Source: Phycisphaerales bacterium | GTDB taxonomy: Bacteria > Planctomycetota > Phycisphaerae > Phycisphaerales > UBA1924 | Assembly (NCBI GenBank): GCA_044223975.1 | Contig: JBGALI010000012.1 | Location: forward strand, 38,422-102,421 | Length of the DNA stretch: 64,000 nt | Reading direction: 5' to 3' | In this document: one piece after another, positions 27,637-62,976 of the stretch | Position numbering within the stretch: position 1 is the first letter of the stretch | Layout of the letters: every line of letters starts with the position of its first letter | Translations under genes and position numbers: made by a program | The notes under the pieces: model-generated | Told to the model about the DNA's origin: nothing | Database searches by the model: none | The model's input: only the letters and a program-made list of their open reading frames with translations

Positions 27637-27643
27637 AATCTAC

Positions 27644-28475: not shown

Positions 28476-28560
28476 GGTTGTGTCCCTTGGTGTCCGCATA
28501 TTGCTGGTTGTTCGGACTTGTGATCCGTGGTAGCCTGCGCCCTTTGGGGGGGCACGCAAA

Positions 28561-29348: not shown

Positions 29349-29387
29349 TGCTAGTTGCTCTGGAATCGCTGCGGCAGAGCGTTCGGT

Positions 29388-38162: not shown

Positions 38163-40484
<2,322 letters not shown>

Positions 40485-40492
40485 GAGATTCC

Positions 40493-40897
40493 ATGATCAG
40501 CACACCGCGGTCCGATTGCCCCCCACCGTTCGCGCTGCCCGAATTGCTCGAGCGCTGCATGGGTAGCACCGACGTCGCCGCGCTCGTGCTGGACAAATTT
40601 GAAATCCAGCTTCGAGAAGACGTTGGAGCGATCGCATCCCTGATTACCGCTCACGATGCGGTCCAGATCGCTCGCAAAGCCCACGCCCTGAAGGGCGCGG
40701 CCGGCTCTGTGGCGGCGCAGACGCTGCGCGTTCTGGCGGCGCAAGTGGAGTCATCGGCCAAACAGGATCGGCTCGACGCTATAGCCGGAGACTTTGCCGC
40801 GCTCCGCTCGGAGATCGAGCGCTGCCTGACGCATCTTCCAGGAGCCCGGCACGCGCTGCTCTCCGGCATTGCCCCGTCACGCGAGGTCTCGCCATGA
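40493..40897 (+). CDS. Hpt (histidine phosphotransfer) domain protein
   Basis: IARKAHALKGAAGSVAA is the Hpt HxxKG motif, behind an AGGAG RBS. Its stop overlaps the next start (ATGA). Confidence 0.8.
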   Translation: MISTPRSDCPPPFALPELLERCMGSTDVAALVLDKFEIQLREDVGAIASLITAHDAVQIARKAHALKGAAGSVAAQTLRVLAAQVESSAKQDRLDAIAGDFAALRSEIERCLTHLPGARHALLSGIAPSREVSP

Positions 40898-41910
40898 AGG
40901 TCCTGGTCGTCGATGACAACGAAGTATCACTTTCATTGCTGCGGGCCACGCTGCAGAGCGCCGGGTATGAAGTGGAGACCGCGCACGACGGGGCGGCGGC
41001 GCTTGAGCGGATCCGACGCGCTGGCCTCCGACTTGTCGTTACTGACTGGGAAATGCCGGGGATGAGCGGCCTTGAGCTGTGCCGCGCCATCCGGGCCGAT
41101 GACATCTCGGGCTATGTGTACTTCGTTCTGGTGACGTCCCATGACACGCCACAGGATGCCGTCGAGGGCCTCTCCGCGGGCGCCGACGACTTTGTCGCAA
41201 AGCCTTTCAATCCTCCGGAGCTAATCGCGCGGGTGCGCGTCGGCGAGCGCATTCTGGCTCTTGAAACGCGTGACGTGGCGATCTTTGCAATGGCGAAGCT
41301 CGCCGAGTCGCGCGACCCGGAAACGGGCGCGCACCTCGAGCGGGTCCGCAGCTATTGCCGCGTCCTGGCGAAGGATCTGGGATCTCTCCCGAAGTTCCGC
41401 GATCAGATCGATGCCGAGTTCATTCGCCTCATCTACCTGACCAGCCCGTTGCACGACATTGGCAAGGTGGGGATCCCGGACAACGTGCTGCTCAAAGCCG
41501 GTCGGTTGAACGACCGGGAGTTCGAGATCATGCAGATGCACGCGATGCTGGGAGCGCAGACGCTCGACGCCGCGCTGCGCGCGTTCCCGGGCGTGAAGTT
41601 CCTTGAGATGGCTCGGGACATCGCCGCGACTCACCACGAGCGTTGGGATGGCTCGGGCTACCCCGCGGGACTTGCGGGGACCGCGATACCGCTGAGCGGA
41701 CGCATCACGGCGCTCGCGGATGTTTACGATGCGCTCACGTCCAAGCGGGTATACAAGGCCGCGTTCTGCCATGAAATGGCCGCGTCCATGATCAGAAAGG
41801 ACGCCGGCTCGCACTTTGATCCAGACATCGTGGATGCGTTCCTGCGCACCGAGAAGCAGTTCATCGAAATCCGGGCTCACTTTGCCGAGACGTACGCCGC
41901 AGCCGCGTAG
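40894..41910 (+). CDS. Response regulator with HD-GYP (c-di-GMP phosphodiesterase-type) output domain
   Basis: REC (MKVLVVDDNEV...VVTDWEMPGMSG) followed by HD-GYP motifs (HDIGKVGIP, HHERWDGSGYP). Confidence 0.85.
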   Translation: MKVLVVDDNEVSLSLLRATLQSAGYEVETAHDGAAALERIRRAGLRLVVTDWEMPGMSGLELCRAIRADDISGYVYFVLVTSHDTPQDAVEGLSAGADDFVAKPFNPPELIARVRVGERILALETRDVAIFAMAKLAESRDPETGAHLERVRSYCRVLAKDLGSLPKFRDQIDAEFIRLIYLTSPLHDIGKVGIPDNVLLKAGRLNDREFEIMQMHAMLGAQTLDAALRAFPGVKFLEMARDIAATHHERWDGSGYPAGLAGTAIPLSGRITALADVYDALTSKRVYKAAFCHEMAASMIRKDAGSHFDPDIVDAFLRTEKQFIEIRAHFAETYAAAA

Positions 41911-41952
41911 TTCGTCGCGGCAGGGCAATCCGGCGCCCGAGGACGGAGGAGC

Positions 41953-44922: not shown

Positions 44923-45478
44923 ATCCCTGTCTGAGAAACTCCGAGCGCGGCCAGCTCATCGCCATACTCCATCGCACGTGAACAGGTCGAGCAAGGGCGC
45001 CCAGGCTGATCGAGTGCCACACTACCGCGCCGACGTGGAGTCGGCGTCGATTCGCGCATGAATTCGCGCGTGAAAATTTACTTATGTTGCTTTCCCATGT
45101 TTCGCCGTCGCACCGCGCAGGTTATTAGCACTCGGCCGGTGCCGGAGTCGCGATCCCCAAAGCCTCGCGCTTTGGGTTGACCACGCCGGGCGTCTCCTGC
45201 GCCGCGGCACCCCGCCGCTCGGTCCCTTCGCGTCTTCAACTCGTAGGTAAGAAGAAATTCATTCTTGTGTCAGGATCGCGCCATACGCGATTGCGAAACT
45301 CAGACCCGGAGAGAAGGAACAACCGGGCCGCAGGCCGCGCGCCCGATGTCGAGACCGCCGGGTCCCCCACGCGGCGGTCTTCTTTGATGCTTAGCGGATT
45401 GGTGCATCAGTTCGCACCCGCCAAGCCCGATGGCACCTCACTCAGTTCAACGAGGCAGGGCGGCAGGCGACCTCCCGC

Positions 45479-45802
45479 ATGGGGCTTCTTCATTCCATCA
45501 AACTCCTCTGGTCGGGCCGCGGAAGCCGCCGGGCTCCCCGTACAGGGGGCGTGGGGATTACCTGCGAACTCGGAGATGTGGTGGATTACAGCACCACCGG
45601 CATGCGTGTGATGACCGAGATCAAGCCCGCGGTGGGGCTGGGTGATGTCCTGCACCTGGAGGTGACAGGTCCAGGTTGGACTCGCCGACTCTCTGTTCGC
45701 GTGGCGCGGGTCACTCGGGCCTCGCTGAGCCTCTGGGAGGTTGGCCTTGAGTTTCTGGGTGAGCCAGGACCATCCATCCCTACGACGGCCTCGCATCGAT
45801 GA
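45479..45802 (+). CDS. PilZ domain protein (c-di-GMP receptor-type)
   Basis: RRAPR (RxxxR) followed by DYSTTG (DxSxxG) at canonical spacing. Confidence 0.75.
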   Translation: MGLLHSIKLLWSGRGSRRAPRTGGVGITCELGDVVDYSTTGMRVMTEIKPAVGLGDVLHLEVTGPGWTRRLSVRVARVTRASLSLWEVGLEFLGEPGPSIPTTASHR

Positions 45803-45936
45803 CCTTGAATTCGGAGGAGGACCTCCCCACTGGACATCGTGCGGACAGCCGCCCCCGTGCCGTGGCGTGGTGGGCGCCAGCCGCTCGTCGTTCGGGTTCA
45901 CTAGAGTTGGTGGCGGACGCGCGTCCGACACTCCGA

Positions 45937-46890
45937 TCATCCCCCGCTGGTCTTTCCTCCCATCACCCGAAGGATCTGTCCTGCGATGTAGCTCGAATCC
46001 GCGCTAGACGCGAGGAAGACGTACGCGGGCGCTAGTTCCTCGGGCTGGGCCGGGCGATCGATGGGTGGTCCGGTCTTGCCGCGACCGAAGTTGGCGATTC
46101 GTTGGCGAGAAGCGCCGCGGTCGCTCGGGTTCAGCGGCGTCCAAACGGGACCGGGGGCCACCGCGTTTACGCGGATTCCTTGGGCGATCAGCTGGCGCGC
46201 CAGGCTCTTGGTGAGGGTGTTGATCGCGCCCTTGGTCGCGCTGTAGTCGGGCAGCTCGGGTGGCCCGTCGAACGCCGTCTCGGAGCTCGTCACAATGATC
46301 GATGCACCTCGCTTCAGTCGCGGCAGGGCAGCCTTCACGAGCCAGAAGTACGCGTACACGTTTGTCTTGAACGTACGGTCAAACTCCGCGTCGGTGACGT
46401 CAAGAATCGATTTCTTGCGGTTCTGCCAGGCGGCGTTGCTCACCAGCACATCGAGCCTCCCGAAGGCACGCCATGTTCTCTCCACGATCGATCTGCACGT
46501 CTTTGGGTCGCGCAGATCGCCCGGCAAACGCAGACACCGCTTCCCCAAACTCTCGACCGCCGCTGCGGTTTCTTTCGCATCCGATTCCTCGGCGCGCAGA
46601 TAGTTGATGGCGACGTCCGCGCCCTCGCGTGCGTACATGACCGCCACGGCACGCCCGATCCCCGAATCCCCGCCCGTGATGAGCGCCGCCTGGCCGGCCA
46701 GTTTGCCCGCGGGAGCAAAGTCGGGGGCTTCGTAGCGCGGTCGCGGTCGGAGCTTCGATTCAATGCCCGGCTTGCTCTGGTGCTGCCGCGGGAACGGAGG
46801 GCGGGGCTGCTCCGCGGGCCTCCTGCGGGACGTGGGCTTGCGCATCGCGGGCTGCCTCCGATTGGTGTTAACGCTGTCCACCCCGCGCAT
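45937..46890 (-). CDS. SDR-family NAD(P)-dependent oxidoreductase
   Basis: TGGDSGIGRA (TGxxxGIG), NAAW, and the catalytic YSATKGA (YxxxK). The exact start is uncertain. Confidence 0.8.
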   Translation of the reverse strand: MRGVDSVNTNRRQPAMRKPTSRRRPAEQPRPPFPRQHQSKPGIESKLRPRPRYEAPDFAPAGKLAGQAALITGGDSGIGRAVAVMYAREGADVAINYLRAEESDAKETAAAVESLGKRCLRLPGDLRDPKTCRSIVERTWRAFGRLDVLVSNAAWQNRKKSILDVTDAEFDRTFKTNVYAYFWLVKAALPRLKRGASIIVTSSETAFDGPPELPDYSATKGAINTLTKSLARQLIAQGIRVNAVAPGPVWTPLNPSDRGASRQRIANFGRGKTGPPIDRPAQPEELAPAYVFLASSADSSYIAGQILRVMGGKTSGG

Positions 46891-50163: not shown

Positions 50164-50332
50164 CGTGCGATTCTAGCCCATTGCTTGATAACATCAACTA
50201 TTGAAGATAGCATCTTTGTGCCCCCGGGCCGGAACGCCCGAAGAGGGACGCCCGCGAGCGCGACGCGGGGAGAGCCAGTCAACCCCGACAAGCCGCCCGT
50301 CCCGGGGGCGCCCGCGGTGCGAAGGATTCCGG

Positions 50333-51607
50333 ATGAAGAAGAAGCCGTTGATCGCGGGAATCTCGCTGCTCGCCGGTCTGCTTGCCCTGGGCGGCGGGGT
50401 GGCGTTCGTGAAGTACCGGAGCATGCGGGCGGCGGCCAACCAGCCGGCGTTCCAGCCGCCGGACTTCGTTGACGTGGTGGAGGCAACCCCGGTGTCCTGG
50501 CAGCCCACGGCACGCCTGGTGGGCACCGTGATCGCCAAGCGCTCCGTGACCCTCGCGAACGAGATCGCCGGCACCGTGACCGAGGTCGGGTTCGACTCCG
50601 GCGAGCAGACGACGGCCGGTCAGGTGCTCGTGCAGATGGATGTCTCGACCGAGACGGCGGACATGCACACGGCAGAAGCCGCGGCGAGAGTCGCTCGCGC
50701 GGCGGTCGAGGTCGCCCAGGCCAACATCCAGTCCTCGCAGGCCAGCGTCCAGCTGGCCGAGAGCAATCAGCGACGCTTCAGGGACGCCGGCAAGTCGGTC
50801 TCCGCCTCCGACCTCGACCGCATGAACACCGAGCTCGACAAGGCCCGGGCGGACCTTCAGCGCCAGCAGTCCGACCTCGTCAAGGCCCGGGCCGAGGTGG
50901 AGCAGGCCGAGGCGCGGGTGCGGCAGATCCAGACCCTCATCGCCAAGAAGACCCTCAGAGCCCCGTTCCTGGCCCGGGCGAGCATGCGCACCGTGGACCC
51001 GGGGCAGTACCTCAAGGAAGGCACGTCCATCGTCAGCCTGACCGAGGTCACCGACGACATTTACCTCGACTTCGCCGTGCCCCAGGACTACGCCGCGCGG
51101 GTCGCCCCGGGCGCGGTCGTCGTTGCCAAGTCGCAGATGCTCGGGAGCGAGTCCGTCAGGATCACCGTGGTGTCGATCGACTCGACCGTGAACCCGACGA
51201 CCCGCAACGTGAGGGTCAGGTCCAGCGTGCCCAACCCCGACCAGAGGCTCAAGCCCGGCATGTTCATCGACATCGAGGTCCCCGTCGAGGCCGCCCGGCA
51301 GTTTGTCGCCGTCCCCACGACGGCGGTTCGCCGCGCCGCCTTCGGCGATCACGTGTTCGTGCTCGAGCCGGGCGATCCCGCCGGCGACCCGCCGGGGTCC
51401 TTTCGCGCCCGCCAGCGCATGGTCAAGCTCGGCCCCGACATCGCGGGCAAGGTCATCATCAGCGAGGGCCTGAAGATGGGCGAGCAGCTCGCCACCAGCG
51501 GATCGTTCAAGCTCCACGAGGGCTCGCTGGTCATGAAGGCTCCGCCCGTTGCGGAGAAGTCCGGCGCGGCGCCGGCGGCACCCGGGGTCGCCGCGGCGGG
51601 CCAGTGA
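50333..51607 (+). CDS. HlyD-family membrane fusion protein (efflux adaptor)
   Basis: N-terminal anchor (MKKKPLIAGISLLAGLLALGGGVAF), coiled-coil and beta-barrel pattern. It is adjacent to the RND pump. Confidence 0.8.
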   Translation: MKKKPLIAGISLLAGLLALGGGVAFVKYRSMRAAANQPAFQPPDFVDVVEATPVSWQPTARLVGTVIAKRSVTLANEIAGTVTEVGFDSGEQTTAGQVLVQMDVSTETADMHTAEAAARVARAAVEVAQANIQSSQASVQLAESNQRRFRDAGKSVSASDLDRMNTELDKARADLQRQQSDLVKARAEVEQAEARVRQIQTLIAKKTLRAPFLARASMRTVDPGQYLKEGTSIVSLTEVTDDIYLDFAVPQDYAARVAPGAVVVAKSQMLGSESVRITVVSIDSTVNPTTRNVRVRSSVPNPDQRLKPGMFIDIEVPVEAARQFVAVPTTAVRRAAFGDHVFVLEPGDPAGDPPGSFRARQRMVKLGPDIAGKVIISEGLKMGEQLATSGSFKLHEGSLVMKAPPVAEKSGAAPAAPGVAAAGQ

Positions 51608-51660
51608 CCTGGCGGATGGAACGTGGCGTGAGCACCCCAGGCTGACGGGCCGAGGACCGC

Positions 51661-54600
51661 ATGAAGTCATTCACCGACATCTTCATCCGCAAGCCCGTGC
51701 TTGCCATCGTCATCAACGTGATGATCCTGGCCGTGGGCTGGCAGGCGATCTCCAAGCTGCCGGTGCGCCAGTATCCCCGCCTTGAATCCAGCGCGATCGT
51801 CATCACGACCGCGTACATCGGCGCCAGCGCCGAAACCGTGCGAGGCTTCATCACCACGCCCATGGAAAAGGCCGTTTCCGCGATCGACGGCATCGACTAC
51901 ATCGACTCCACCAGCACCGCCGGCGTAAGCATCGTCACGGTGCACCTGCGGCTGAATCACTCGAGCAACGCCGCGCTTGCCGAAATTTCGGCGCGGCTCA
52001 ACCAGGTGCGCAGCGAACTGCCCCAGGAATCCGAGTCGCCGGTGATCGAAATCCAGCGGACGGACAAGCCGTACGCGACCTTCTACATAAGCCTCACCAC
52101 CACGTCGCTGACGCTGCCCCAGCTCAACGACTTCATGGCCCGCGAGCTGCAGCCCGAGCTGCAGTCGCTCCCGGGCGTGCAGCGCGTGGGCATCGAGGGG
52201 CCCCGCCCGCTGGCGATGCGGATCTGGCTGGACTCCAACAAGCTCGACGCGTTCGACGTCACGCCCGCCGAGGTGAGCGACGCGCTGATCCGCAACAACT
52301 TTCTTGCCTCCGTCGGCCGCACCAAGGGCACGGACGTGCAGATCGACCTGATGACCGATACCGACCTTCGCAGCCCGGAGGAATTCCGAAAGCTCATCGT
52401 GAGACAGCGCGACGGGAGCATCGTCCGCCTCTCCGACGTCGCGCGCGTGGACCTGGAGAGCGAGGAGGCGACCGGGCAGGCGGGGTTCAACGGCACCCCC
52501 GCGATCTGGTTCTCGGTCTGGCCGCTGCCCAGCGCCAACGAGCTGGACGTCGCGAAGGTGCTCAAGGCCAAGCTCGCGGCGATGCAGCCGATGCTCCCGG
52601 GCGGGGTGCAGATGAAGCTCGCCTACGACGGCACCTACTACATGGAGAACGCGATCAAGGAGATCATCCACACGCTGGGTGAGACCGTCCTGATCGTCGG
52701 CATCGTGGTGTTCCTGTTCATGGCGTCGGTCCGCACGGTGCTTGTGCCGATGATCGCGATGCCGATCTCGCTCGTGGGCGCGTGCACCGCGATGCTCCTC
52801 ATGGGCTTCTCGCTCAACCTGCTCACGATTCTGGCGATCGTGCTCGCGGTGGGGCTGGTGGTCGACGACGCCATCGTGGTCGTTGAGAACGTCGAGCGTC
52901 ACATGCGCGAGGGCAAGAAGCCGATCCCCGCGGCGATCCTCGGGGCCCGGGAGCTCGTGGGACCCATCATCGCGATGACGATCACGCTGGCCGTGGTGTA
53001 CGCGCCGATAGGCTTCCAGGGCGGGCTGACGGGGATGCTCTTCCGCGAGTTCGCCTTCACGCTCGCGTCGGCCGTGATCATCTCCGGCATCGTCGCCGTC
53101 ACTCTCTCGCCGGTCATGAGCGCGGCGCTGGTGCCCAGCGGCGCTCACGAGGGCCGCTTTCACCGCATGGTGAACCGCCATTTCGACGCGCTCAGACGCG
53201 CCTACGCCCGAACGCTCGCGTTCGTCTTGGAGATGCGGTGGGCGGTGGCAGTCTCCGCGGTGCTGATCACGGCCGCGGCGTGGCCGCTCTATTCGATGTC
53301 GAAGTCCGAGCTCGCCCCGACCGAAGACGAGGGCGTGGTCTTCACGGTCATCCAGTCCGCGCCGGACGCCTCGCTCGCGTACACGCTGAAGTCGTTCGAC
53401 CAAGTCGCCGACGCCTTTCTCAGCACCCCGGAACGCAAGTTCTTCTTCCAGGTGTCGCAGACCACGGGCGGCTTCGGCGGCATCCAGACGATCGACTGGA
53501 ACAAGCGGTCGCGCAGCACCGCCGAGATCCGCAACGAACTGTTCCCGAAGCTGATGGCCGTCGCCGGCATCCGCGCGTTCCCCGCGCTCCCCCCGCCGCT
53601 GCCCGGCGCGGGCCAGTTCGACATCGAGTTCATGGTCACGAGCACCGAGGAGGCCGAGCAGATGGCGCCCGTCGCGGGCCAGCTCGTCGCCGCGGCGTTC
53701 GGCAGCGGGAAGTTCCTCTACGCCGACTCGGACCTGAAGGTCGACCTCCCCCAGACCCGGATCATCATCGACCGGGAGCGCGTCGCGGACCTTGGCCTGA
53801 ACCTCGCCTCGGTCGGACGTGACCTCGCCCTGCTCCTCTCGGGCGGGTACACCAACCGATTCAATTACGACGGACGCAGCTACAAGGTCATCCCGCAGGT
53901 GGAGGACGCGGCCCGGAGCAGCGCCGACAAGATCATGGACCTGAAGGTCCGTGCCGCCAACGGCGGCCTGGTATCGATCTCTTCCTTCGTCACGCTCAAG
54001 ACGACCGCCGCGCCCCGCTCCCTGACCCGATTCCAGCAGCGCAACAGCTTCAAGATCTACGGCGGCGTGGCCCCCGGAGTGACCAAGGAAGAGGCGCTCC
54101 GCGCCCTTGAGACCGCGGCCAAGGGCATCCTCCCCGCCGGCTACTCCTTCGACTACGCCGGCGAGAGCCGCCAGATGCGGTCGGAATCGTCGTCCCTTGT
54201 CTCCACGCTCGGGCTCGCCCTCGGGCTGATCTATCTCGTCCTCGCGGCACAGTTCAGCAGCTTCCGCGACCCCTTGATCGTCCTTCTCGGCTCCGTGCCC
54301 CTGGCCATCACCGGCGCACTCCTGTTCACGTTCCTGGGCCTCACCACGCTCAACATCTACTCGCAGGTGGGGCTGATCACGCTGGTCGGGCTGGTCGCCA
54401 AGAACGGCATCCTGATCGTCGAATTCGCCAACCACCTGCAGGCGACGGGGCTCTCCAAGTCGGAGGCCGCGCAGCAGGCGGCGGCCACCCGCCTTCGCCC
54501 GATCCTGATGACCTCCGCCGCGACCGTGTTCGGCCACTTCCCGCTGGTGCTCGTTTCCGGCGCGGGAGCCGAAGCCCGGAACAGCATCGGCACGGTCCTG

Positions 54601-54804
54601 GTGACGGGCATGATCATCAGCACGTTCTTCACGCTCTACTTCGTGCCGTGCATCTACAGCCTCCTGGCCGCGGAGCACAAGCGCGACACGGCCGTTGACG
54701 AGCATGACGAGGCAGGGTCGCCCGCGAGTGCCAACGACGCCTCTTCGGGTTACGGCGGCCCCGAAACACGCACGGGCGATCTGAGGGCCGTGCCCTCGCT
54801 GTAA
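51661..54804 (+). CDS. RND efflux transporter (HAE1/MdtB-like)
   Basis: 1047 aa with a typical N-terminus (MKSFTDIFIRKPVLAIVINVMILAVGW) and AcrB topology. Confidence 0.9.
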   Translation: MKSFTDIFIRKPVLAIVINVMILAVGWQAISKLPVRQYPRLESSAIVITTAYIGASAETVRGFITTPMEKAVSAIDGIDYIDSTSTAGVSIVTVHLRLNHSSNAALAEISARLNQVRSELPQESESPVIEIQRTDKPYATFYISLTTTSLTLPQLNDFMARELQPELQSLPGVQRVGIEGPRPLAMRIWLDSNKLDAFDVTPAEVSDALIRNNFLASVGRTKGTDVQIDLMTDTDLRSPEEFRKLIVRQRDGSIVRLSDVARVDLESEEATGQAGFNGTPAIWFSVWPLPSANELDVAKVLKAKLAAMQPMLPGGVQMKLAYDGTYYMENAIKEIIHTLGETVLIVGIVVFLFMASVRTVLVPMIAMPISLVGACTAMLLMGFSLNLLTILAIVLAVGLVVDDAIVVVENVERHMREGKKPIPAAILGARELVGPIIAMTITLAVVYAPIGFQGGLTGMLFREFAFTLASAVIISGIVAVTLSPVMSAALVPSGAHEGRFHRMVNRHFDALRRAYARTLAFVLEMRWAVAVSAVLITAAAWPLYSMSKSELAPTEDEGVVFTVIQSAPDASLAYTLKSFDQVADAFLSTPERKFFFQVSQTTGGFGGIQTIDWNKRSRSTAEIRNELFPKLMAVAGIRAFPALPPPLPGAGQFDIEFMVTSTEEAEQMAPVAGQLVAAAFGSGKFLYADSDLKVDLPQTRIIIDRERVADLGLNLASVGRDLALLLSGGYTNRFNYDGRSYKVIPQVEDAARSSADKIMDLKVRAANGGLVSISSFVTLKTTAAPRSLTRFQQRNSFKIYGGVAPGVTKEEALRALETAAKGILPAGYSFDYAGESRQMRSESSSLVSTLGLALGLIYLVLAAQFSSFRDPLIVLLGSVPLAITGALLFTFLGLTTLNIYSQVGLITLVGLVAKNGILIVEFANHLQATGLSKSEAAQQAAATRLRPILMTSAATVFGHFPLVLVSGAGAEARNSIGTVLVTGMIISTFFTLYFVPCIYSLLAAEHKRDTAVDEHDEAGSPASANDASSGYGGPETRTGDLRAVPSL

Positions 54805-55352
54805 ACTCGCCGACACGGACCGCCCCCGGAGGTGCGTCCTGTCGCAGCCATTACAGCCGGGCGCGCCCCTCAACGCCCGGCGAGCTGGCCCGCCGCCCAC
54901 CCGCGCCACTGGGGCGTATCGCCTCGGAATGCGGTCTCGCGGAGATACTCGTGCGTTGTGTCATTCATTTTTGCCCATCCGCACCTGCATGCGGGCGATC
55001 GCCTGCATCGACTGGATGTGTCCCAGGTAGATCTCAAGCACCGTGCAGTAGGTTTCAAGAGCCTCATTCGAACGCCCCGCCCGTTCCAGGGCGATCGCCA
55101 GATTGAGACGAGGATCGGGGGCACCGGGCATGCGTTTTCGTGTAAAGATCGTACAGAGCAAGGTGGAGCAGCCCTTGAACCGGCTGCTGATCGAGGAGAC
55201 CGAACACCGGTACAGTCGGCGCTGGTAACACATAGGCAGCGGTCAAGCTGACAGAATCGCAGCTGTGGAGGCTGCCGTTCACAACGGGGATCCTTGACTT
55301 GGGTCAGAAACTTGAGGCGTCGTCGTCGCCACAGCAATAGACCGTCGCTTGG

Positions 55353-56189
55353 TTGCCGCAACCTTCCCCCTCCCCCACCGGTACCCCGAGGAGCCCCCCA
55401 CTCCTCGATGCCCCCTGCGAACGCCGCTGCGGCATCGATCGCCTGAAGGGCGAAGCCGCTCCTTGCGGGCTTGGCGACCAGACCTGGTGCTTCAAGCGGC
55501 ACACCAGCTACTCGGAAGAGGTTGACCTGCTCCCCAGCTACATGGTGTACCTGGGAGGGTGCAATTTTCGGTGTCGGTTCTGTGTGCAGGCCCCCTCGTG
55601 CTTTTCGCCGCGCGGGGGGGTGAAGGTTGAGCCGGGCGAGGCCGCGGCTGATTTTCTGCATGTGGTCGGGAGGGGGGCCCGGACCATCAACCTGCTGGGG
55701 GGCGAGCCCAGCCTGCACCTGCACACGATCCTTGAGATCGCTGCCGCGGCTGGGGAGCCGCTCCCGCTGCTGCTGAACTCGAACATGTACATGACCCCCG
55801 AGGTCATCGAACTGCTCGACGGGGTGGTCTCGATGTACATCGCGGATTTCAAATTTGGAAATGATCTCTGCGCCCGCAACCTGGCCGGGATCGACCGGTA
55901 CGTGGAGGTCGTGACGAGGAACCTGTTATTGGCGCAGGAACGCGCCGGGCTGATCGTGCGGCACCTGGTGATGCCGGGGCATGTCGACTGCTGCCTTGAG
56001 CCGGTAGCGCGGTGGCTCGCGGCAAACATGCCCGGGGCCCGCACCACGCTCATGACGGGGTACGTGCCGGGGTGGCGTGCCGCGGCTGATCGCGGCCCGA
56101 TGGGGCGGTGCCTGGATGAAGACGAAGTGAAACGAGCCGAGGCGCGGTGGCGTGCGTATGGGCTCGCGGTTGAAGGGGATTCGCCATGA
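55353..56189 (+). CDS. Radical SAM enzyme, PflX/COG1313-like (PFL-activase-related)
   Basis: CNFRCRFC (Cx3Cx2C) inside YLGGCNFRCRFCVQ. An upstream Cys-rich CERRCG...APCG segment and LLGGEP are also present. The track start is TTG 55353; no in-frame ATG precedes the Cys motifs. Confidence 0.7.
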   Translation: MPQPSPSPTGTPRSPPLLDAPCERRCGIDRLKGEAAPCGLGDQTWCFKRHTSYSEEVDLLPSYMVYLGGCNFRCRFCVQAPSCFSPRGGVKVEPGEAAADFLHVVGRGARTINLLGGEPSLHLHTILEIAAAAGEPLPLLLNSNMYMTPEVIELLDGVVSMYIADFKFGNDLCARNLAGIDRYVEVVTRNLLLAQERAGLIVRHLVMPGHVDCCLEPVARWLAANMPGARTTLMTGYVPGWRAAADRGPMGRCLDEDEVKRAEARWRAYGLAVEGDSP

Positions 56190-56401
56190 ATCCGGCGACC
56201 GGATCACACGCCCCCGACGGCAGCGACGGCGACGGCAGAGCGCTGCCGGTGACGATCCGCATCGGGCCCGACGGGCGGGTGTACTTCCACGACATCACGT
56301 GCGACCTTCTGCCGGTGGCGAGTGCGCTTGACCCGCAGAACCGGGAATTGAAGCGGCGGGCCGATGCCGCGGCAGCCTTTGCACAGAAAAGAGAGCCATG
56401 A
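56186..56401 (+). CDS. Hypothetical 71-aa protein, translationally coupled on both sides
   Basis: ATGA overlap with the radical SAM stop and with the AAA ATPase start. Sequence begins MNPATGSHAPDGSDGDGRALPVTIRIGPDGRVYFHDITCDLL. Confidence 0.45.
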   Translation: MNPATGSHAPDGSDGDGRALPVTIRIGPDGRVYFHDITCDLLPVASALDPQNRELKRRADAAAAFAQKREP

Positions 56402-58032
56402 CCCAGGTTGCGCCCAAGCTCAACGGTTCCCTGCCGCACGCCGACCCCGCGCCGCCGGACGAGCTTGATGTGCTCATCCGCGCCCGCTACCCGGTGATCT
56501 ACATCGTGAGCTGGGAAGAGGCCCGCGTTGAGCAGCACCTGCTGCGGATCGCCAACCGGCGCGGCAAGCAGCTCCACTGCTGGTCGGTCACGACGGGCAT
56601 GCGGCGGACGGGCGCGGGCCCGACGCCGGCGCGCCAGCGGACGCTCGCGGACCCGATCGAGGCGCTCGACACCGTGATCGAGCACAAGGAACCGGCGATC
56701 TATCTGTTCCAGGACTTTCACGCATTCCTGCGGCCGCAGATCCCGTGCAACGCGCCCAATATCCGCAAGCTCCGCGAGGTGGCGCGGGCGCTCAGCGACA
56801 GCTACAAGACGCTGGTGATCTGTGCGCCGCGGCTGGAGATCGCGCCAGAGCTTGAGAAGGACGTCACGGTCTTTGATTTCCCGCTTCCCACCTCGCCGGA
56901 TATCGAGGGTCTGCTCAAGCGGATCTGCGCCGACGTGGCGGGCAACGCGGCGTTCTCGGTCAACATCGACGACAGGGGGCGCGAGTCGCTTGTGCGCGCG
57001 GCCAGCGGGCTGACGCTGCAGGAGGCCGAGAACGTCTTCGCCAAGACCCTGGTCAACGACGGCGTGCTGACGGGCGAGGACGTCTCGACGGTCTTTGCCG
57101 AGAAGCAGCAGATCGTCCGCAAGAGCGGGTTGCTCGAGTACTACGACTCGAGCGCCGACCTTGGCGCCGTGGGCGGGCTCGACGAACTGAAAGACTGGCT
57201 GCAGCGGCGGTCGGTCGCGTTCACCGAGAAAGCTCGCGCGTTCGGACTGCCTGAGCCCAAGGGCGTGCTGCTGGTCGGCGTGCAGGGGTGCGGCAAGAGC
57301 CTGTGCGCCAAGGCGGTGGCGCGCGAGTGGAAGATGCCGCTGCTGCGCTTCGACATGGGCCGCATGTTCTCGAGCCTGGTGGGATCGTCGGAGGAGAACA
57401 TACGTCGCGCCATCGCGGTGGCCGAGAGCGTCGCCCCGGCGGTGCTGTGGGTGGACGAGATCGACAAGGCGTTCTCGGGCAGCCAGAGCTCAGGCGGCAC
57501 CGACGGCGGCACGACGGCGCGGGTCATGAGCACGTTCCTGACGTGGCTGAGCGAGAAGCAGCGGCCGGTGTTCGTCCTGGCGACCGCCAACGACATCTCC
57601 CAGTTGCCGCCCGAACTGCTCCGCAAGGGCCGGCTCGACGAGATCTTCTTCGTGGACCTTCCGATCATGGCCGAGCGCCGCGAAATCACGAGGATCCACC
57701 TCAAGGCGCGGAAACGCGACCCGGGCGCGTTCGATCTCGACGCGATCGCGAGCGCGGCGGACGGGTTCAGCGGCGCGGAGATCGAACAGGCGATCGTCAG
57801 CGCCCTGTACGACGCGTTCTACCTGGGGCGTGAGCTCAGCACGGCCGACATCCTGGGCAGTGTGCGGGAGACGGTGCCGCTGTCGCGCACCATGAGCGAA
57901 CGCATCTCCGGGCTGCGGTCGTGGGCCGAGGGACGGGCACGCTTCGCCTCCAAGCCCGACGCCACGCTGGTGCCACTCACGCGGCGGAAGCTCGAAGCAG
58001 AATCGCACGATCACCGAGGAGCATCGGCATGA
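56398..58032 (+). CDS. AAA+ ATPase (single C-terminal AAA module, CDC48/FtsH-like) with ~300-aa N-terminal domain
   Basis: Walker A GVQGCGKS, Walker [11 protein letters not shown] and second-region-of-homology pattern. Confidence 0.8.
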
Positions 58033-58487
58033 GCACGGTCTGCGTCCTGACACCGATCGTCATCGGATCCTGGCCCATGATCGCTGGCGCGATCGCCGGC
58101 GCGGCAAGCTCGCTGGGATTCACGCTCGCCACCGCGGACGTGCCCCTCACGCTCCGCCCCACGGACTCGTCCGTCGAGACCGAGGTTCCCAACAGCGAGG
58201 TGATGGCCGACGTGCTGGCCCGCGGCGAGAAGATCCGCGTGACCAGGGACGGAGTGGCGGTGGACTTCGGCGTGGACGACCGCGGCAAGGTCACGGTGTG
58301 CGCGAGCGGGAGAGGCAAGACCAACGGCGAGCTCAAGAAGATCGGCCAGGAGATCGCGGGCCGGGTGGTGCAGCAGTTCGCGTACCACAAGCTGGTCAAC
58401 GAACTCAAGAGCCGCGGCTACCAGATCTCGCAGGAACGCGTCGAGCGCGACCAGTCGATCCAGATCACCATCCGCTCGGGGCATTGA
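58029..58487 (+). CDS. DUF1257 (Ycf35)-like protein with N-terminal hydrophobic extension
   Basis: C-terminal QQFAYHKLVNELKSRGYQISQERVERDQSIQITIRS resembles the Ycf35/DUF1257 C-terminal pattern as I recall it. ATGA overlap with the AAA ATPase stop. Confidence 0.5.
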   Translation: MSTVCVLTPIVIGSWPMIAGAIAGAASSLGFTLATADVPLTLRPTDSSVETEVPNSEVMADVLARGEKIRVTRDGVAVDFGVDDRGKVTVCASGRGKTNGELKKIGQEIAGRVVQQFAYHKLVNELKSRGYQISQERVERDQSIQITIRSGH

Positions 58488-58514
58488 GAACTCGTCCGTT
58501 CGAAAGGAAACTCC

Positions 58515-58727
58515 ATGTCCGCCCCTGAGTTCGATGTTTCGATCGGCGCCGATGGCAAGGTCAAGGTCAAGGTGAAGGGGGTTTCCGGCGAGGAGTGCGT
58601 CCGATTGACGGACATGATCCGCGACATCGTGGGCAAGGAAGACAGCCGCGAGAAGACGGCGGAGTACTACGGCCCGGGCGGGAGCGTCCGGATCGATTCG
58701 CACGTCAAGGGGAGGACCGGGGGCTGA
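58515..58727 (+). CDS. DUF2997-like small protein
   Basis: 70 aa: MSAPEFDVSIGADGKVKVKVKGVSGEECVRLTDMIRDIVG. It lies immediately after the DUF1257-like gene, the usual partner position. Confidence 0.5.
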   Translation: MSAPEFDVSIGADGKVKVKVKGVSGEECVRLTDMIRDIVGKEDSREKTAEYYGPGGSVRIDSHVKGRTGG

Positions 58728-58750
58728 GTATGGCCGCGCGGACCTGAACC

Positions 58751-59779
58751 ATGGAATGTCCGAACTGCTCATTCCAGAACACGCCCGGCCTGCGGTCGTG
58801 CGTGCGCTGCCAGAGCGTGCTGGACCTCGGCGAGGTCGGCTTTACGCCGCCGCGGGCATCGCGGAGCGCGGTGGTCAGGCTTGCGCGGGGAGCTTCGTAT
58901 TCGACCCGGTCGCGCCTGAACGAACTGGCCGAGGGCTTGGGGGCGGCGCTCGCTCGGCGCGTGCCGCGCGAGGTGCCCGCGAGCGAGGTTCTGGCGTCCG
59001 TCATCCCCGGGCTGGGCCAGTTGCTCGCCGGACGCCGCGTGCTGGGGTGGTCGATTCTCGGCGTTTGGGCGCTGCTGCTGCTACTGGCGTTTCTGAACTT
59101 CGGTTCTCCCGGCGGGTACGTGCTGGTGTTCACCGCCGTGGGCGTCCACTGCACGGCGGTATCTCTGGTCCTGGCCCCCATCCAGGCCGGGATGACCACT
59201 GTGGCACGCGCCGCCGCGGGGCTGCTCACGTGGGCGGTCCTGGTTGGCGGGCTGTATTGGCCGGCGTCGGTGCTAGCGGGGCAGTTTTTCAGGACGGTGT
59301 TCATCACCGGGATCGTGCGTTCACCCGTGCTGCTCGACGGTGACGTTCTTCTCACGACCGGCGCGTGGACCGCACCAAAGTCCTTGGCGCCGGGGGACCT
59401 GATCGCGTACAACATCCCGTGGATCTCCGGCGGCAGCATCGTCGTGGCCGAGGGGCTTGGCGTGGACCGCATCGTCGGCGCTCCGGGCGATACGGTGCAG
59501 ATTGACCACGGCGTGCTCACGGTCAACGGACAACCTGTGCCCGCGGGGCACGTGCCGCTGGGGGACACCGCCAAAATGACGGACGTGACCGTCACGGCGG
59601 GCCGGGGCGAGTACGTGGTCCTTCCGTCGCTGCTCCCGATGTCGGCGCACGGCTACGCGCCGGTTGCGTCGATGATCGCGCGGGTGTCCCGTGTCAACGA
59701 GTCGCAGATCGTCGGTCGCGTCGTCTGCCGCGTGCGGCCTTGGAACCGATTCACCCGGGCGATCGGAGTTCAGCCATGA
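58751..59779 (+). CDS. Zinc-ribbon membrane protein with C-terminal signal-peptidase-I (S26)-like but apparently non-catalytic domain
   Basis: N-terminal CPNC...CVRC; three to four TM helices; a C-terminal GDLIAYN...VDRIVGAPGDTVQIDHGVLTVNGQPV segment resembling SPase box C/D, but with Asp where the catalytic Lys (VKRVIGLPGD) would be. No SxxPTL Ser box was seen. Confidence 0.5.
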   Translation: MECPNCSFQNTPGLRSCVRCQSVLDLGEVGFTPPRASRSAVVRLARGASYSTRSRLNELAEGLGAALARRVPREVPASEVLASVIPGLGQLLAGRRVLGWSILGVWALLLLLAFLNFGSPGGYVLVFTAVGVHCTAVSLVLAPIQAGMTTVARAAAGLLTWAVLVGGLYWPASVLAGQFFRTVFITGIVRSPVLLDGDVLLTTGAWTAPKSLAPGDLIAYNIPWISGGSIVVAEGLGVDRIVGAPGDTVQIDHGVLTVNGQPVPAGHVPLGDTAKMTDVTVTAGRGEYVVLPSLLPMSAHGYAPVASMIARVSRVNESQIVGRVVCRVRPWNRFTRAIGVQP

Positions 59780-60567
59780 CGGGTCGGTTTAACAGGCTGG
59801 AATCCGAGTTGCTCATCCGCGAGTCGTCGGCAACGGGCGTTTCGGTCGCGGGAAACTCGGTGCGCACGGCCGCCGACGAGGTGCGGACGGCAGTCGATCA
59901 CGTCCACTTCGGCCGGTTCGAGGATGCGCTCCGCCATTACACGCGGGCACTGGGGTACGACCGCGCGGTCATCCCCGCGTGGGTCGGCCAGGTGCAGATG
60001 CTGGTGGAACTGGGCGAGAACACCGAAGGGCGGATGTGGTCGGACAAGGCTCTGGAACTATTCAAGAACAACGGGGAACTGCTGGCGGCCAAGAGCCGCG
60101 CGTGCATCCGGGTCGGTGACCGCGGCGCGGCGTTCGCGTGCAGCGACGCATCGCTCAAGAGCGCGGGGAGCTCTTCGGCGCGGTGGCAGGCCCGCGGCGA
60201 GGTGCTGCTCGGCTCGGACCGTGCCGTTGCACGGAATTGCTTCGAGAGGTCGCTCGTCGAAGCCGACGCGGACTGGTTCGACCGGATCACGATCGCGAGG
60301 ATCTACCTTTTTCACGGGATGGCAGCCGCGGCGCTCGAGCACGCCCAGTCCGGGTCCGACATGCAACCGTCGCACGCCTACGGGTGGTACGTGCTGGGCC
60401 AGTGTCAGGAGGGCTTGGGCCTCATGGACCGAGCCATGGCGAGCTACGCGCGGTCGCTCGAGCTTTCTCCGACGAACAACCCGGCGCGCAAGGCGGTCGA
60501 CCGCGTGCTGGAGCACTCGACCGGCACCCGCGTCTGGCGCCGCCTGAAAGGAATCTTCGGACCATGA
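59776..60567 (+). CDS. TPR-repeat protein
   Basis: Degenerate 34-residue helical repeats with AxxxY/W..G patterns. ATGA overlaps on both sides. Confidence 0.6.
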   Translation: MTGRFNRLESELLIRESSATGVSVAGNSVRTAADEVRTAVDHVHFGRFEDALRHYTRALGYDRAVIPAWVGQVQMLVELGENTEGRMWSDKALELFKNNGELLAAKSRACIRVGDRGAAFACSDASLKSAGSSSARWQARGEVLLGSDRAVARNCFERSLVEADADWFDRITIARIYLFHGMAAAALEHAQSGSDMQPSHAYGWYVLGQCQEGLGLMDRAMASYARSLELSPTNNPARKAVDRVLEHSTGTRVWRRLKGIFGP

Positions 60568-61616
60568 ACCTGCGATCCGTACTCGTCAGCGCCCGCGAGC
60601 ACCGCGCCAGCGACGCCCACCTGCTGGTCGGCCTTCCCCCGATGTTCCGGCTCGGCGGCGAGATCGTCGCCAGCCGCGGGAGGCCCATGTCGAGTGAGGA
60701 CATCACCACGATGCTCAGCGATTGCCTGAACGCCGAGCAGCGCGAGCGTCTGGATCGCGAGTGGCAGTTGTGTGTCTCGGTGGTCTACCCCGACGTCGGG
60801 CGGGCGCGGGTCACCGTCTACCGACGCAACGGCCTGTGCGAGGTCAGCGTCCGCATGAGCGAGCCGGCCATCCGCACGCGGGCCGAACTGCGCCTGCCGT
60901 CGATCGTCGATGATCTGGCGCGGAGGCTCGACGGACTGGTCATCCTCACCGGCCCGACGGGCGTCGGCAAGACCACCACGCTGCACTACATGATCGACCT
61001 GATCAACGCGGAGCGCGCCTGCAAGGTCGTGACGATCGAGGACCCCATCGAATACGTTCACGCGTTCAAGCGGTCCATCATCGTGCAGCAGGAGGTGCTG
61101 ACCGACGTCCGCGACTTCACATCCGCGCTCCGACACGTGCTGCGGCAGGACCCGGACGTGGTGGCCATCGGGGAGATGCGCGACCGTGAGACCATTTACA
61201 CAGCGCTCCAAGCCGCGGAGACGGGGCACCTGGTGATCGCGACACTGCACACGCCCGGCGCGGTGGATGTGGTGCAGCGCCTGGTCTCGGCCTTTCCCGA
61301 GGGCCAGCAGGCCGAGATCCGGTTCATGCTTGCCAACAGTCTGCAAGGGGTGATCGCGCAGTCGCTGCTCCCCCGCGCGGCCTCCAAGGGCCTGGCCCTG
61401 TGCACCGAGGCGCTCATCGGCACGCAGGCCGTGCGCAACCACATCCGCGAGAACACGGCGCACCAGCTGTACAGCGAGATGCAGTCCGGCCGCCGGCACG
61501 GCATGTTCACGATGGACGCGTCGCTGCTCGAGCTGTACCAGCAGGGCGAGATCACGTACGACACCGCGCTGGCGTCGTCCAAGCACCCGGACAACCTGCG
61601 CAAGCGTGCGTCATAG
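60564..61616 (+). CDS. pilT: PilT-family (type IV pilus retraction-type) hexameric ATPase
   Basis: Walker A GPTGVGKTT, Asp box VTIEDPIEY, Walker B and His box (VIATLHT) in PilT order. ~350 aa, typical of PilT/PilU rather than PilB. Confidence 0.8.
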   Translation: MNLRSVLVSAREHRASDAHLLVGLPPMFRLGGEIVASRGRPMSSEDITTMLSDCLNAEQRERLDREWQLCVSVVYPDVGRARVTVYRRNGLCEVSVRMSEPAIRTRAELRLPSIVDDLARRLDGLVILTGPTGVGKTTTLHYMIDLINAERACKVVTIEDPIEYVHAFKRSIIVQQEVLTDVRDFTSALRHVLRQDPDVVAIGEMRDRETIYTALQAAETGHLVIATLHTPGAVDVVQRLVSAFPEGQQAEIRFMLANSLQGVIAQSLLPRAASKGLALCTEALIGTQAVRNHIRENTAHQLYSEMQSGRRHGMFTMDASLLELYQQGEITYDTALASSKHPDNLRKRAS

Positions 61617-61783
61617 CGGCCGCCAGGAACATCAGAACCGCGGGGCGTGCCCGCGTCCGCACGTGAAGCCGGGGGCACTCGGCGCACACCGACAGCGCGG
61701 TGCGCCGCGACACTTTCTTGCTCGCAGCGCACCGCGCCGGGTGCGATCGTCCGGATCACGCGCGATCCCGAACCGCGCCGTCT

Positions 61784-62380
61784 TCAGTTCGCGGCGCCGA
61801 CGAAATCCACCTCGTCTCCGGCGGCGTCAACCACCACCCCGGCCCACTCGGTCACGGTGCCCGACGCGTTGAACTTGCAGCCGTACAGCCCGGCCGCGGC
61901 GGCGTTGCACTCGGAGGCGTCGAAATACGCCGCGTAGAAGCCCGAGCCCGCGGCCCTGCCGCGCGAATTGCCCGCGCCGTTGACGCCCGCGAGGAGTTGA
62001 ACGACCGCGACGCCGCCGTTGGCGCACGGGGCGTCGGTCTCGCTGTACGCGAAGAGGACCTTGTCCTCGTCGTCCCACAGCATCTCGGTCCGTTCCAGCG
62101 TGCCGTCCCCGTCGATGTCGATCTCTTCAACCCAGTAACTGTCCGTATCGGTGGGCGAGTTGCCGGTGTTGATCGCGGCGCTGCCCTTGCCGATCGACGT
62201 CGCCTTGGTCGCGCTGGGCGGCGGCGGCGCCTTGGCCCGAGCCTGGAGCGCCGTGGGGGACACGTTCAGGGCGGGGGCAGCGCCCGCGGATGTCTTTGAA
62301 CTTGAGTTGCACGCCGCGAGCGAACCGGCGAGCAGCACGGACAGGGCGACGCGGGTGTACACGATCGAACGAGACTGCAT
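61784..62380 (-). CDS. Hypothetical lipoprotein
   Basis: Signal peptide with lipobox (VALSVLLAGSLAAC). Ser/Thr/Ala-rich linker, Asp-rich segment (EEIDIDGDGTLE). Confidence 0.45.
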   Translation of the reverse strand: MQSRSIVYTRVALSVLLAGSLAACNSSSKTSAGAAPALNVSPTALQARAKAPPPPSATKATSIGKGSAAINTGNSPTDTDSYWVEEIDIDGDGTLERTEMLWDDEDKVLFAYSETDAPCANGGVAVVQLLAGVNGAGNSRGRAAGSGFYAAYFDASECNAAAAGLYGCKFNASGTVTEWAGVVVDAAGDEVDFVGAAN

Positions 62381-62976
62381 GATGTGAACTCCATTGGGAC
62401 TACGACGCAAATGAATCGGTAACAGCGGCAACTCGAAGGATGGTCCGGCGAGCTACTCGCACCGCCGAACACCCTTCGTTCACCGCACCTTCCTCCCGGC
62501 GCCGCCATGTGAACGCAAAGACCGGGCGATGTCAAACGAGCACAATCGCGAGCGCAACCACGTCGGGGGTTGCGCCCGGGCGTTGTGGAAAGCATGACGG
62601 GCAGAACCGCCCGACCGTTCCACCGCGCAAAATCGGCCCGAACACTTTGGGTGCGATCCTCCATCCTCTGACGCTTCGGTCGAGCCACGGATCCGCTGCA
62701 ACTCGTGTTCGCCATGGCACTTGCCCGTCAACGCCGCGGTATGACGCGTTCGTGGGCAGGGGCAGGAAGCGGAACGCAGGATTCCGGGGGCTCGGTGCAA
62801 GGTCCGTGTGGTCTACGGCAAATCTTGATACGTGCCATCGTCGGCATCCGGCGACCGAGGCAATCGGGCTGATCAATGAGTGCGGGTGTCCAGCGTGCGT
62901 CGCCCGCACCAATAGGTTAACGGGGGTCACTCACCCCGCCGCGGACCAATCTCCACGGCGGGGCTTTGGAAAAAGG

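Follow-up and report, generated by a model that had tools for sequence, protein, structure and literature searches.

An eight-gene operon built on a Ycf46-type AAA+ core in Planctomycetota and Verrucomicrobiota: composition, conservation and possible mode of action

The stretch of 64,000 nucleotides (nt) analysed here, called the window in the following, lies on contig JBGALI010000012.1 of a Phycisphaerales bacterium (GCA_044223975.1) and carries at positions 55353-61616 an operon of eight co-directional genes. In this operon a Ycf46-type AAA+ ATPase and two companions, a DUF1257-like and a DUF2997 protein, are encoded together with a radical SAM (S-adenosylmethionine) protein, a small protein without family, a membrane protein with the fold of S26 signal peptidases, a tetratricopeptide repeat (TPR) protein and an ATPase of the PilT/PilU family. 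The same set recurs across Planctomycetota and Verrucomicrobiota, and it is a solid conclusion that this set is a single functional unit, conserved and inherited vertically, on a Ycf46-type core. The genes, numbered g1 to g8, and the adjoining features are the following (aa, amino acids).

55353-56189, plus strand: g1, radical SAM protein, 278 aa, TTG start
56186-56401, plus strand: g2, family-less protein of 71 aa, found in 78 of 83 loci
56398-58032, plus strand: g3, Ycf46-type AAA+ ATPase, 544 aa
58029-58487, plus strand: g4, DUF1257-like protein, 152 aa
58515-58727, plus strand: g5, DUF2997 protein, 70 aa, Pfam 50.4 bits
58751-59779, plus strand: g6, membrane protein with S26 fold, 342 aa, Pfam 33.9 bits
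59776-60567, plus strand: g7, cytoplasmic TPR protein, 263 aa, Pfam TPR_16
60564-61616, plus strand: g8, hexameric ATPase of the PilT/PilU family, 350 aa, TIGR01420
54805-55352, plus strand: 5' intergenic region, presumed promoter or leader, which holds a minus-strand reading frame at 54961-55233
61696-61719, plus strand: weak terminator-like hairpin 80 nt past the g8 stop, a possible operon end

Inspection of the open reading frames (ORFs) reproduced exactly the layout described in an original prediction made from the letters alone, namely eight co-directional genes with start and stop codons overlapping as ATGA at five junctions (g1/g2, g2/g3, g3/g4, g6/g7 and g7/g8) and gaps of 27 nt between g4 and g5 and 23 nt between g5 and g6. 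The overlaps hint at co-translation of the operon genes. For g1 the TTG at 55353 was taken as start because it is the sole in-frame start upstream of the conserved Cys22. The domain calls of the prediction, radical SAM, AAA+, DUF1257, DUF2997, S26, TPR and PilT, hold as well when the proteins are compared with Pfam and NCBIfam.

How widely is this arrangement distributed? One genome per GTDB species was scanned with the AAA+ alignment alone, which yielded 80 loci from Phycisphaerae, Tepidisphaeraceae, other Planctomycetota and many Verrucomicrobiota, and iterated hidden Markov models (HMMs) built from the eight proteins of the window were run on the six-frame ORFs of the loci. All eight genes are present in 59 of the 80 species-representative loci. 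Counted singly over 83 loci (the 80 plus three earlier duplicates), g1 and g2 are each found in 78, g4 in 75, g5 in 73, g6 and g7 each in 71 and g8 in 68, g8 always being the last gene of the cluster. The order 1-2-3-4-5-6-7-8 is kept in every contig that is long enough, about six variants aside. Two genomes, GCA_044226385.1 and GCA_020639075.1, whose AAA+ proteins are 81% and 70% identical to g3, show the identical eight-gene order between different flanks, an additional lineage possesses the complete set at an AAA+ identity of only 57%, and the named AAA+ homologues belong to metagenome-assembled genomes (MAGs) of Phycisphaerales and Phycisphaerae. That dozens of species whose flanks are unrelated share one gene order is far more than chance would produce, and the presence of g2 in 78 of 83 loci indicates that this family-less ORF is a real gene. 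Moreover, for all eight proteins the distance matrix is correlated with the g3 matrix (r=0.66-0.92 over the 59 species-level loci), and AAA+ identity tracks taxonomy, with 67-81% in Phycisphaerales and 59-63% in Verrucomicrobiota. The cross-genome co-occurrence that the original prediction had put forward as a check is thus seen in both phyla.

The junctions within the operon differ in tightness. Overlaps of 4 nt occur at g1/g2 in 36 of 74, at g2/g3 in 45 of 75, at g6/g7 in 38 of 67 and at g7/g8 in 47 of 65 cases, and short gaps prevail at the g3/g4, g4/g5 and g5/g6 junctions (median 28, 13 and 27 nt, respectively). The variant loci, which are not explained by masked sequence, contain 1-2-3 only, 3-7-8, 3 alone, 3 followed by 1, or lack 1-2 and have an extra TPR-PilT pair. 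The pattern of junction overlaps together with the variants 1-2-3 and 3-7-8 suggests three sub-modules, [radical SAM-g2-AAA+], [DUF1257][DUF2997] and [g6-TPR-PilT].

Some individual loci are peculiar. The Planctomycetota MAG locus L048 (2580-14871) is without g1 and g2, has an extra large TPR gene and a PilT paralogue 5' of the AAA+ gene, and a 1.6-kb insertion separates its g7 from g8. Two contigs among the sampled loci, labelled Haliangiales (L060) and Bifidobacteriaceae (L063), carry an eight-gene cluster of the Verrucomicrobia type with AAA+ identities of 62-63% and a Verrucomicrobia-like DUF2997 sequence; the labels probably reflect mis-binning rather than transfer.

At the centre of the operon stands g3 (Pfam AAA, 107.6 bits), in which an N-terminal alpha/beta domain (residues ~20-250) precedes a single AAA module of the classic clade, equipped with Walker A and B motifs and arginine fingers, and a conserved helix makes up the C-terminus. 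The N-terminal domain, predicted with a pLDDT (predicted local distance difference test) score of ~90, shows a beta-alpha-beta order resembling an AAA core plus lid, and the AAA module is Cdc48 D2-like. A comparable architecture was described for Pvc15, the loader of extracellular contractile injection systems (eCIS), a classic-clade AAA+ protein with an inactive D1 above an active D2 (PMC11495950). Pvc15/Afp15 resemble g3 in that only the last AAA module appears active, beneath a degenerate ring, and they are a useful functional analogue. Relatives of g3 are located inside or beside eCIS loci. Orthology with Pvc15/Afp15 was considered and rejected: a BLASTP comparison with Afp15 of pADAP shows 26% identity, restricted to 144 aa of the AAA core, and a g3 relative embedded in a Treponema eCIS locus is equally distant from Afp15. 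Unlike eCIS, the operon contains no sheath, tube or baseplate genes, and no eCIS genes were found in the window.

The second core protein, g4, matches Pfam DUF1257 with 25.5 bits (cutoff 22.2), at profile positions 63-102 only, that is with its C-terminal part, and its N-terminal part has diverged; many g4 orthologues carry a precomputed PF06868 match or the source name 'DUF1257 domain-containing protein'. The predicted fold is a beta-sheet on a long helix without informative structural neighbour. Residues 1-33 form a conserved hydrophobic segment with invariant P9, W15, P16 and G30, called as transmembrane (TM) segment by hydropathy, which canonical DUF1257 proteins of other lineages do not have. 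On a Bacillus cereus plasmid (locus L090, 4697-5152) a DUF1257-like protein encoded beside an NrdG-like gene starts MSIEIVLIPLAIAL, reminiscent of the hydrophobic start of g4. An invariant Arg-Gly hairpin tip of g4 was considered as glycyl-radical site and dropped as speculative only, as the Arg is not kept in a cyanobacterial DUF1257 protein. The third core protein, g5, exceeds the DUF2997 cutoff of 24.1 bits with 50.4 bits and contains one conserved Cys in a G-x-x-G-x-x-C motif. That DUF2997 serves as ubiquitin- or Pup-like tag, as the terminal GG of the window protein might evoke, was rejected since the C-termini of 73 homologues are unconserved. A natural fusion of DUF1257 and DUF2997 in locus L075 turned out to be an artefact of a masked run of N, and the 224-aa protein P0205 was discarded for its mis-called start.

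The core trio is not confined to the Planctomycetota-Verrucomicrobiota-Chlamydiota (PVC) clade. At E<1e-30 g3 has 5515 relatives; most of the best 150 listed are full-length with 40-57% identity, and several homologues are labelled 'SpoVK/Ycf46/Vps4 family' (JGI). The original prediction had presented the trio as widely conserved and stress-responsive in cyanobacteria, and this proved correct: the cyanobacterial trio is the ycf46 operon (slr0373/slr0374/slr0376; Synpcc7942_0416-0418), which is induced by many stresses, depends on stress, (p)ppGpp and RpaB, and anticorrelates with ribosomal gene expression (bioRxiv 10.1101/2025.07.21.665879). A separate cyanobacterial cluster comprises DUF2997, ycf35 (DUF1257) and fed7, Fed7 being a [4Fe-4S] ferredoxin (PMC4284462). 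Both versions thus encode an AAA+ protein with extra N-domain, DUF1257 and DUF2997 together, and an Fe-S partner is found in both the cyanobacterial cluster and the PVC operon, Fed7 in the former and the radical SAM protein in the latter. In contrast to the ycf46 operon, the PVC version adds five strictly co-inherited genes, those for the radical SAM protein, g2, the pseudo-S26 protein, the TPR protein and PilT, and its DUF1257 protein has a new, hydrophobic N-terminus where canonical members begin with MSHFT.... A probably cyanobacterial example has a membrane-anchored GYF-like 170-aa gene upstream, unlike the PVC operon.

Beyond the original prediction, the survey revealed the link of the trio to radical SAM proteins in other phyla, the sub-modules described above, and the core on plasmids, in phages and beside eCIS genes. 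Cyanobacterial plasmid AAA+ homologues are 40-44% identical over 91-95% of g3, and a Geminocystis plasmid encodes DUF1257, DUF2997 and the AAA+ protein within 3.4 kb. An Elusimicrobiota genome has the order NrdG-like radical SAM - AAA+ - DUF1257 - DUF2997 and nothing further, the B. cereus plasmid the order NrdG-like - DUF1257-like - HhH - AAA+ - DUF2997, and on the Treponema succinifaciens plasmid pTRESU01 (55569-71062, L087) an NrdG-like gene lies directly 5' of the AAA+ gene inside an eCIS locus; the NrdG-like partners in these three score 105-119 bits. In another MAG (L086) AAA+, DUF1257 and DUF2997 lie beside eCIS genes, the AAA+ protein being no Afp15 orthologue there either, and one further context of the core contains an FHA protein. 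A recurrent partner of the core in distant phyla is thus either a glycyl-radical-activase-like Fe-S protein (four phyla) or a [4Fe-4S] ferredoxin. The link of this AAA+ family to glycyl-radical-activase-like enzymes is not mentioned in the literature that was found. The contig L092 (1-17617, Verrucomicrobiota GCA_035390025.1) encodes a paralogous AAA+ protein, 50% identical, in a large cluster with GrpE, Hsp70, five FGE-sulfatase proteins, two small Fer4_12 proteins, AAA_14/DUF4143, DUF1257, DUF2997 and two additional AAA+ genes, one fused to a protein kinase, which looks like a different, conflict-style elaboration of the core. AAA+ proteins of the g3 family are also present in 680 plasmid records, 574 of them conjugative (IncC) plasmids, and in 57 phage records, with several phage groups represented. 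More than 600 enterobacterial plasmid records share the arrangement AAA+ - x - x - DUF2997 with a full-length AAA+ protein of 32% identity; a typed example, the E. coli plasmid pEC8-NDM-1 (L089, 13384-26736), is IncC (incompatibility group C), with the module near type IV secretion genes, and no description of a function for this IncC backbone module was found. Among the contexts sampled, g2, g6, g7 and g8 accompany the core in the PVC-type cluster only.

What could the PVC-specific partners contribute? With 52.9 bits to Pfam Radical_SAM and 24.7 bits to Fer4_12, g1 is a small radical SAM protein whose CxxxCxxC motif (C70/C74/C77), placed near the N-terminus as in the pyruvate formate-lyase-activating enzyme (PFL-AE) and NrdG, is invariant in a conservation profile of 80 sequences. 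Its best PDB match is PFL-AE (E=9e-5) and its best NCBIfam matches are activases of glycyl-radical enzymes, at 33.7 bits against cutoffs of 131-425 with none of the PFLA, NrdG and TIGR04337 equivalogs reached; g1 is related to this activase group. The original prediction had assigned it to TIGR04337, which did not hold up, as no NCBIfam match to that model is obtained at E<=0.01. The label 'PflX-type' used in the original prediction relies on motifs such as RHLV(M/L)PGH and DFK(F/Y), which resemble those of PflX, and g1 may belong to the COG1313/PflX group. In addition to lying far below every curated cutoff, g1 differs from the activases by extra conserved cysteines (22, 26, 38, 172 and an adjacent pair at ~213-214), which suggest a second metal or cluster site. 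No glycyl-radical enzyme gene was found near g1, and in other phyla true NrdG-like proteins occupy its place.

The 71-aa protein g2 matches nothing in Pfam, NCBIfam or PADLOC. Conservation is concentrated in a central hairpin-helix, I-x-I-x-x-DG-R-x-Y-x-H-D-L-T-P...L-x-P-x-D with invariant D29 and G30, between variable ends, and in most species its gene is coupled to both g1 and g3 by 4-nt overlaps. The idea that g2 is a DUF2997 paralogue was not upheld: the likeness comprises merely a 16-residue hairpin similar to the DUF2997 start (hhalign 77%), and no g2 member matches Pfam DUF2997, which leaves a weak lead.

The membrane arm begins with g6, in which an N-terminal CxxC...CxxC zinc ribbon and a (Y)YPPRA motif are followed by about three TM helices and a C-terminal S26 fold (Peptidase_S26, 33.9 bits against a cutoff of 22.9 in Pfam; TIGR02227, 33 against 47 and thus below cutoff in NCBIfam). 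Compared with the PDB, the family profile finds SpsB of Staphylococcus aureus (E=5e-10), SipA (4n31, E=2e-8) and LepA (4k8w, E=3e-7). The Ser/Lys dyad is missing: Ser36 of SpsB corresponds to a variable hydrophobic column and Lys77 to a conserved Asp, and 72 sequences show no conserved Ser or Lys. Judged from these alignments the domain is catalytically dead, and both the zinc ribbon and the degenerate S26 domain named in the original prediction are indeed seen. The ribbon is present in Planctomycetota and missing from Verrucomicrobiota, and the PPRA motif occurs in both phyla. Hydropathy and homology to the signal-peptidase anchor point to three helices with the S26 domain outside and a cytoplasmic tail carrying the ribbon and PPRA motif. 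A word-indexed search returned only 5 homologues of g6 because the protein diverges fast; the family was recovered with the locus-based HMMs instead. SipA and LepA of Streptococcus pyogenes share with g6 the S26 fold without Ser/Lys dyad; in contrast to them g6 is polytopic, has by its predicted topology a cytoplasmic tail with zinc ribbon and PPRA motif, comes from a diderm and is encoded with ATPases, whereas SipA and LepA are encoded with sortase and pilins.

The other two proteins of this arm were likewise found as foreseen, a TPR protein and a solo PilT. In g7, which shares 4-nt overlaps with g6 and g8 in most species, Pfam detects TPR_16 (45.5 bits) and other TPR families, and no hydrophobic segment was found. 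The last gene product, g8, scores 153 bits to Pfam T2SSE and 386 bits to TIGR01420 (cutoff 319; residues 3-343), aligns to PilT in the PDB over residues 2-347 with E=2e-81, and in the alignment to 5zfq has intact Walker A and B, Asp and His boxes and an AIRNLIRE-like AVRNHIRE. It therefore resembles PilT/PilU in full-length architecture and all catalytic motifs and differs in its setting: no other pilus component alongside, always the last gene, coupled to a TPR protein.

How might these proteins act together? The reading that we prefer, with a probability of roughly 0.35, is that the operon encodes a membrane-associated machine with two motors, which would act on a polypeptide client at the inner membrane. 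It could be imagined that g3 forms a Cdc48-D2-like active ring below a probably inactive N-terminal alpha/beta ring and remodels or threads a client polypeptide picked by the DUF1257/DUF2997 pair. The hydrophobic N-terminal segment of g4, gained in the PVC clade, would bring this ATPase to the inner membrane. On the periplasmic side the dead S26 groove of g6 may grip a signal-peptide-like or extended segment, as SipA/LepA do for streptococcal pilins, and mechanical force could come from a PilT hexamer that the TPR protein links to the conserved cytoplasmic tail of g6, which carries YYPPRA and, in Planctomycetota, the zinc ribbon. The PFL-activase-like g1 together with g2 would act on a protein component, so that the machine would work only under reducing conditions with little oxygen and ample SAM. 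Overall it could serve the stress-linked extraction, loading or assembly of a membrane or envelope protein. In favour of this reading stand the conserved unit with its sub-modules, the Cdc48 D2-like AAA module, the S26 fold without dyad, the TM segments of g4 and g6, the PPRA motif kept in both phyla, the full-length PilT, the Fe-S partners of the core in other phyla and the stress induction of the cyanobacterial operon. In a bolder form, which we hold to be improbable, though worth stating, the operon would specify a trans-envelope protein-handling nanomachine of Planctomycetota-Verrucomicrobiota, in which g1 installs a protein radical or another radical-dependent modification on g2, DUF1257 or DUF2997 and thereby licenses a Ycf46-type unfoldase; together with a PilT motor seated on the dead signal peptidase, this unfoldase would extract, load or assemble an envelope protein.

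Several points weigh against the two-motor machine. Classic threading AAA+ proteins carry an aromatic residue at the pore-loop-1 position, where g3 has a Leu in an invariant S-L-V-G, which may mean that g3 remodels its client and does not unfold it processively. Instead of a plain membrane anchor, the N-terminal segment of g4 may represent a conserved peptide used in recognition, because the homologue on the B. cereus plasmid starts similarly and AlphaFold2 confidence in this part is low. The third helix of g6 is weakly hydrophobic, and the topology of g6 rests on it. As the trio has wholly different partners elsewhere (FHA, Hsp70/FGE-sulfatase, eCIS, plasmids, phages), the generic job of the core may be regulatory rather than envelope-directed. 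Furthermore, all mechanistic steps beyond the gene composition are inferred from domain functions and gene coupling.

Four other explanations were weighed, each graded lower than the membrane-tethered two-motor machine. The one that survives best, although we regard it as unlikely, is a stress or growth-arrest checkpoint confined to the cytosol, of the kind proposed for the cyanobacterial ycf46 module, with g6 to g8 only as membrane signal input. It draws on the stress-, (p)ppGpp- and RpaB-dependence of the cyanobacterial trio and on the fact that the trio functions without g6 to g8 in many lineages, yet it accounts neither for the strict co-inheritance and translational coupling of a force-generating PilT and a substrate-binding fold in the periplasm nor for the PVC-specific hydrophobic N-terminus of g4.

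An anti-phage or conflict system, in which the core senses infection and the accessory genes are effectors, was among the candidate roles of the original prediction. Mobility of the core (the 680 plasmid and 57 phage records), its location beside eCIS genes in two loci and its variable partners elsewhere (FHA; Hsp70/GrpE/FGE-sulfatase/kinase-AAA), a pattern typical of conflict systems, would fit such a role, as would the matches in PADLOC-DB 2.0, a generic IetA for g3 and a weak pVip for g1, next to a weak mad8. The eight-gene version itself behaves differently: it is syntenic over two phyla with one cluster per sampled locus, its protein distances co-vary, AAA+ identity tracks taxonomy, operon GC (guanine plus cytosine) content is genome-like, no defence genes were found within ~10 kb, no nuclease, toxin or pore-forming effector domain is encoded, and g2, g4, g5, g6 and g7 have no PADLOC match. 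Vertical inheritance and the single locus thus disfavour an anti-phage role, which is quite unlikely for this version.

About as improbable is the idea that the operon assists or regulates ordinary type IV pili, with g8 as real retraction ATPase and the other genes controlling or servicing pilus dynamics under stress. In its favour g8 passes the PilT/PilU cutoff and matches solved PilT structures over its full length, the profile of g6 matches the pseudo-S26 proteins SipA and LepA, which are streptococcal pilus-assembly factors, and g7 shows weak PilW/Tgl-like TPR similarity in NCBIfam. However, SipA and LepA serve sortase pili, a different system, and at least one genome (L048) encodes a separate PilT paralogue besides g8. 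Moreover, a search that covered the cluster and its flanks found no gene for a pilin, PilB, PilC, PilM-Q or prepilin peptidase, either in the window or in some 60 other species.

Least probable is that the operon modifies and exports a ribosomally synthesized and post-translationally modified peptide (RiPP), as the prediction had also offered, with g2 as precursor modified by g1 and exported by the ATPases and the membrane protein: a translationally coupled 71-aa ORF directly 3' of a radical SAM gene and weak NCBIfam similarity of g1 to sactipeptide and ranthipeptide maturases (18-24 bits, SPASM families all <=24 bits) speak for it, while g2 is conserved in its centre across two phyla with variable ends and thus has no leader/core design, g1 is of the protein-activase type, NrdG-like proteins pair with the AAA+ protein without any g2 in other phyla, and no SPASM or RRE (RiPP recognition element) domain, ABC exporter or other transporter, or active protease is encoded, the S26 domain being dead.

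The eight-gene operon is undescribed in the searchable literature, in agreement with the statement of the original prediction that it corresponds to no described system: publications on DUF1257/DUF2997 hold nothing on PVC taxa or the eight-gene set, and nothing relevant was found on Ycf46 together with PVC taxa or PilT, or on PflX/COG1313. The ycf46-type core itself is known and its function unexplained. This Ycf46/Ycf35/DUF2997 module spans cyanobacteria, algal plastids, plasmids and phages, and its genes are among those most strongly induced in cyanobacteria by several stresses. The PVC operon names candidate partners for the core, an activase-type radical SAM protein, a membrane pseudo-peptidase and a PilT motor, and its fixed, coupled context gives rise to testable hypotheses on the activity of the core and its site of action, which opens the Ycf46 question to experiment. 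It also shows that two little-studied phyla with unusual cell envelopes share a conserved system with more than one ATPase. Should the trans-envelope nanomachine prove true, the biochemical role of the cyanobacterial and plastid module would be revealed.

In the surroundings of the operon, the statement of the original prediction that no pilus or defence genes lie nearby stands for ~10 kb around it; in addition, a resistance-nodulation-division (RND) efflux pair (50201-54804, plus strand), an HlyD-type membrane-fusion protein and an AcrB-family RND transporter, is located directly 5'. The closest relative (L001) likewise has an ACR_tran gene, which is separated from the cluster by ~7.8 kb and marks the upstream edge of that locus. 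A consensus scan for a sigma-70 promoter upstream of the operon and an Rfam search for a riboswitch or leader gave no match. GC content, for the operon equal to that of the surrounding DNA, dips upstream to 0.60 at 54900-55199, and the minus-strand ORF at 54961-55233 encodes 90 aa with TPR-like sequence (Pfam TPR_12, E=9e-4) and is possibly a small gene or a remnant. On the other side, the hairpin at 61696-61719 is merely a possible operon end because the number of terminator-like sites is not above the shuffled expectation; the gene 3' of the operon (61784-62431) is convergent, and the downstream flank contains a lipoprotein-like gene and a TPR gene. Farther away, positions 41953-44922 of the minus strand encode a large histidine kinase of the hybrid type, in which several PAS domains are combined with HisKA, HATPase and a pair of receiver domains. 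The GC content of the window is 0.62-0.65 at 22000-30000 and 36000-46000 and 0.67-0.70 elsewhere, possibly marking regions of different origin.

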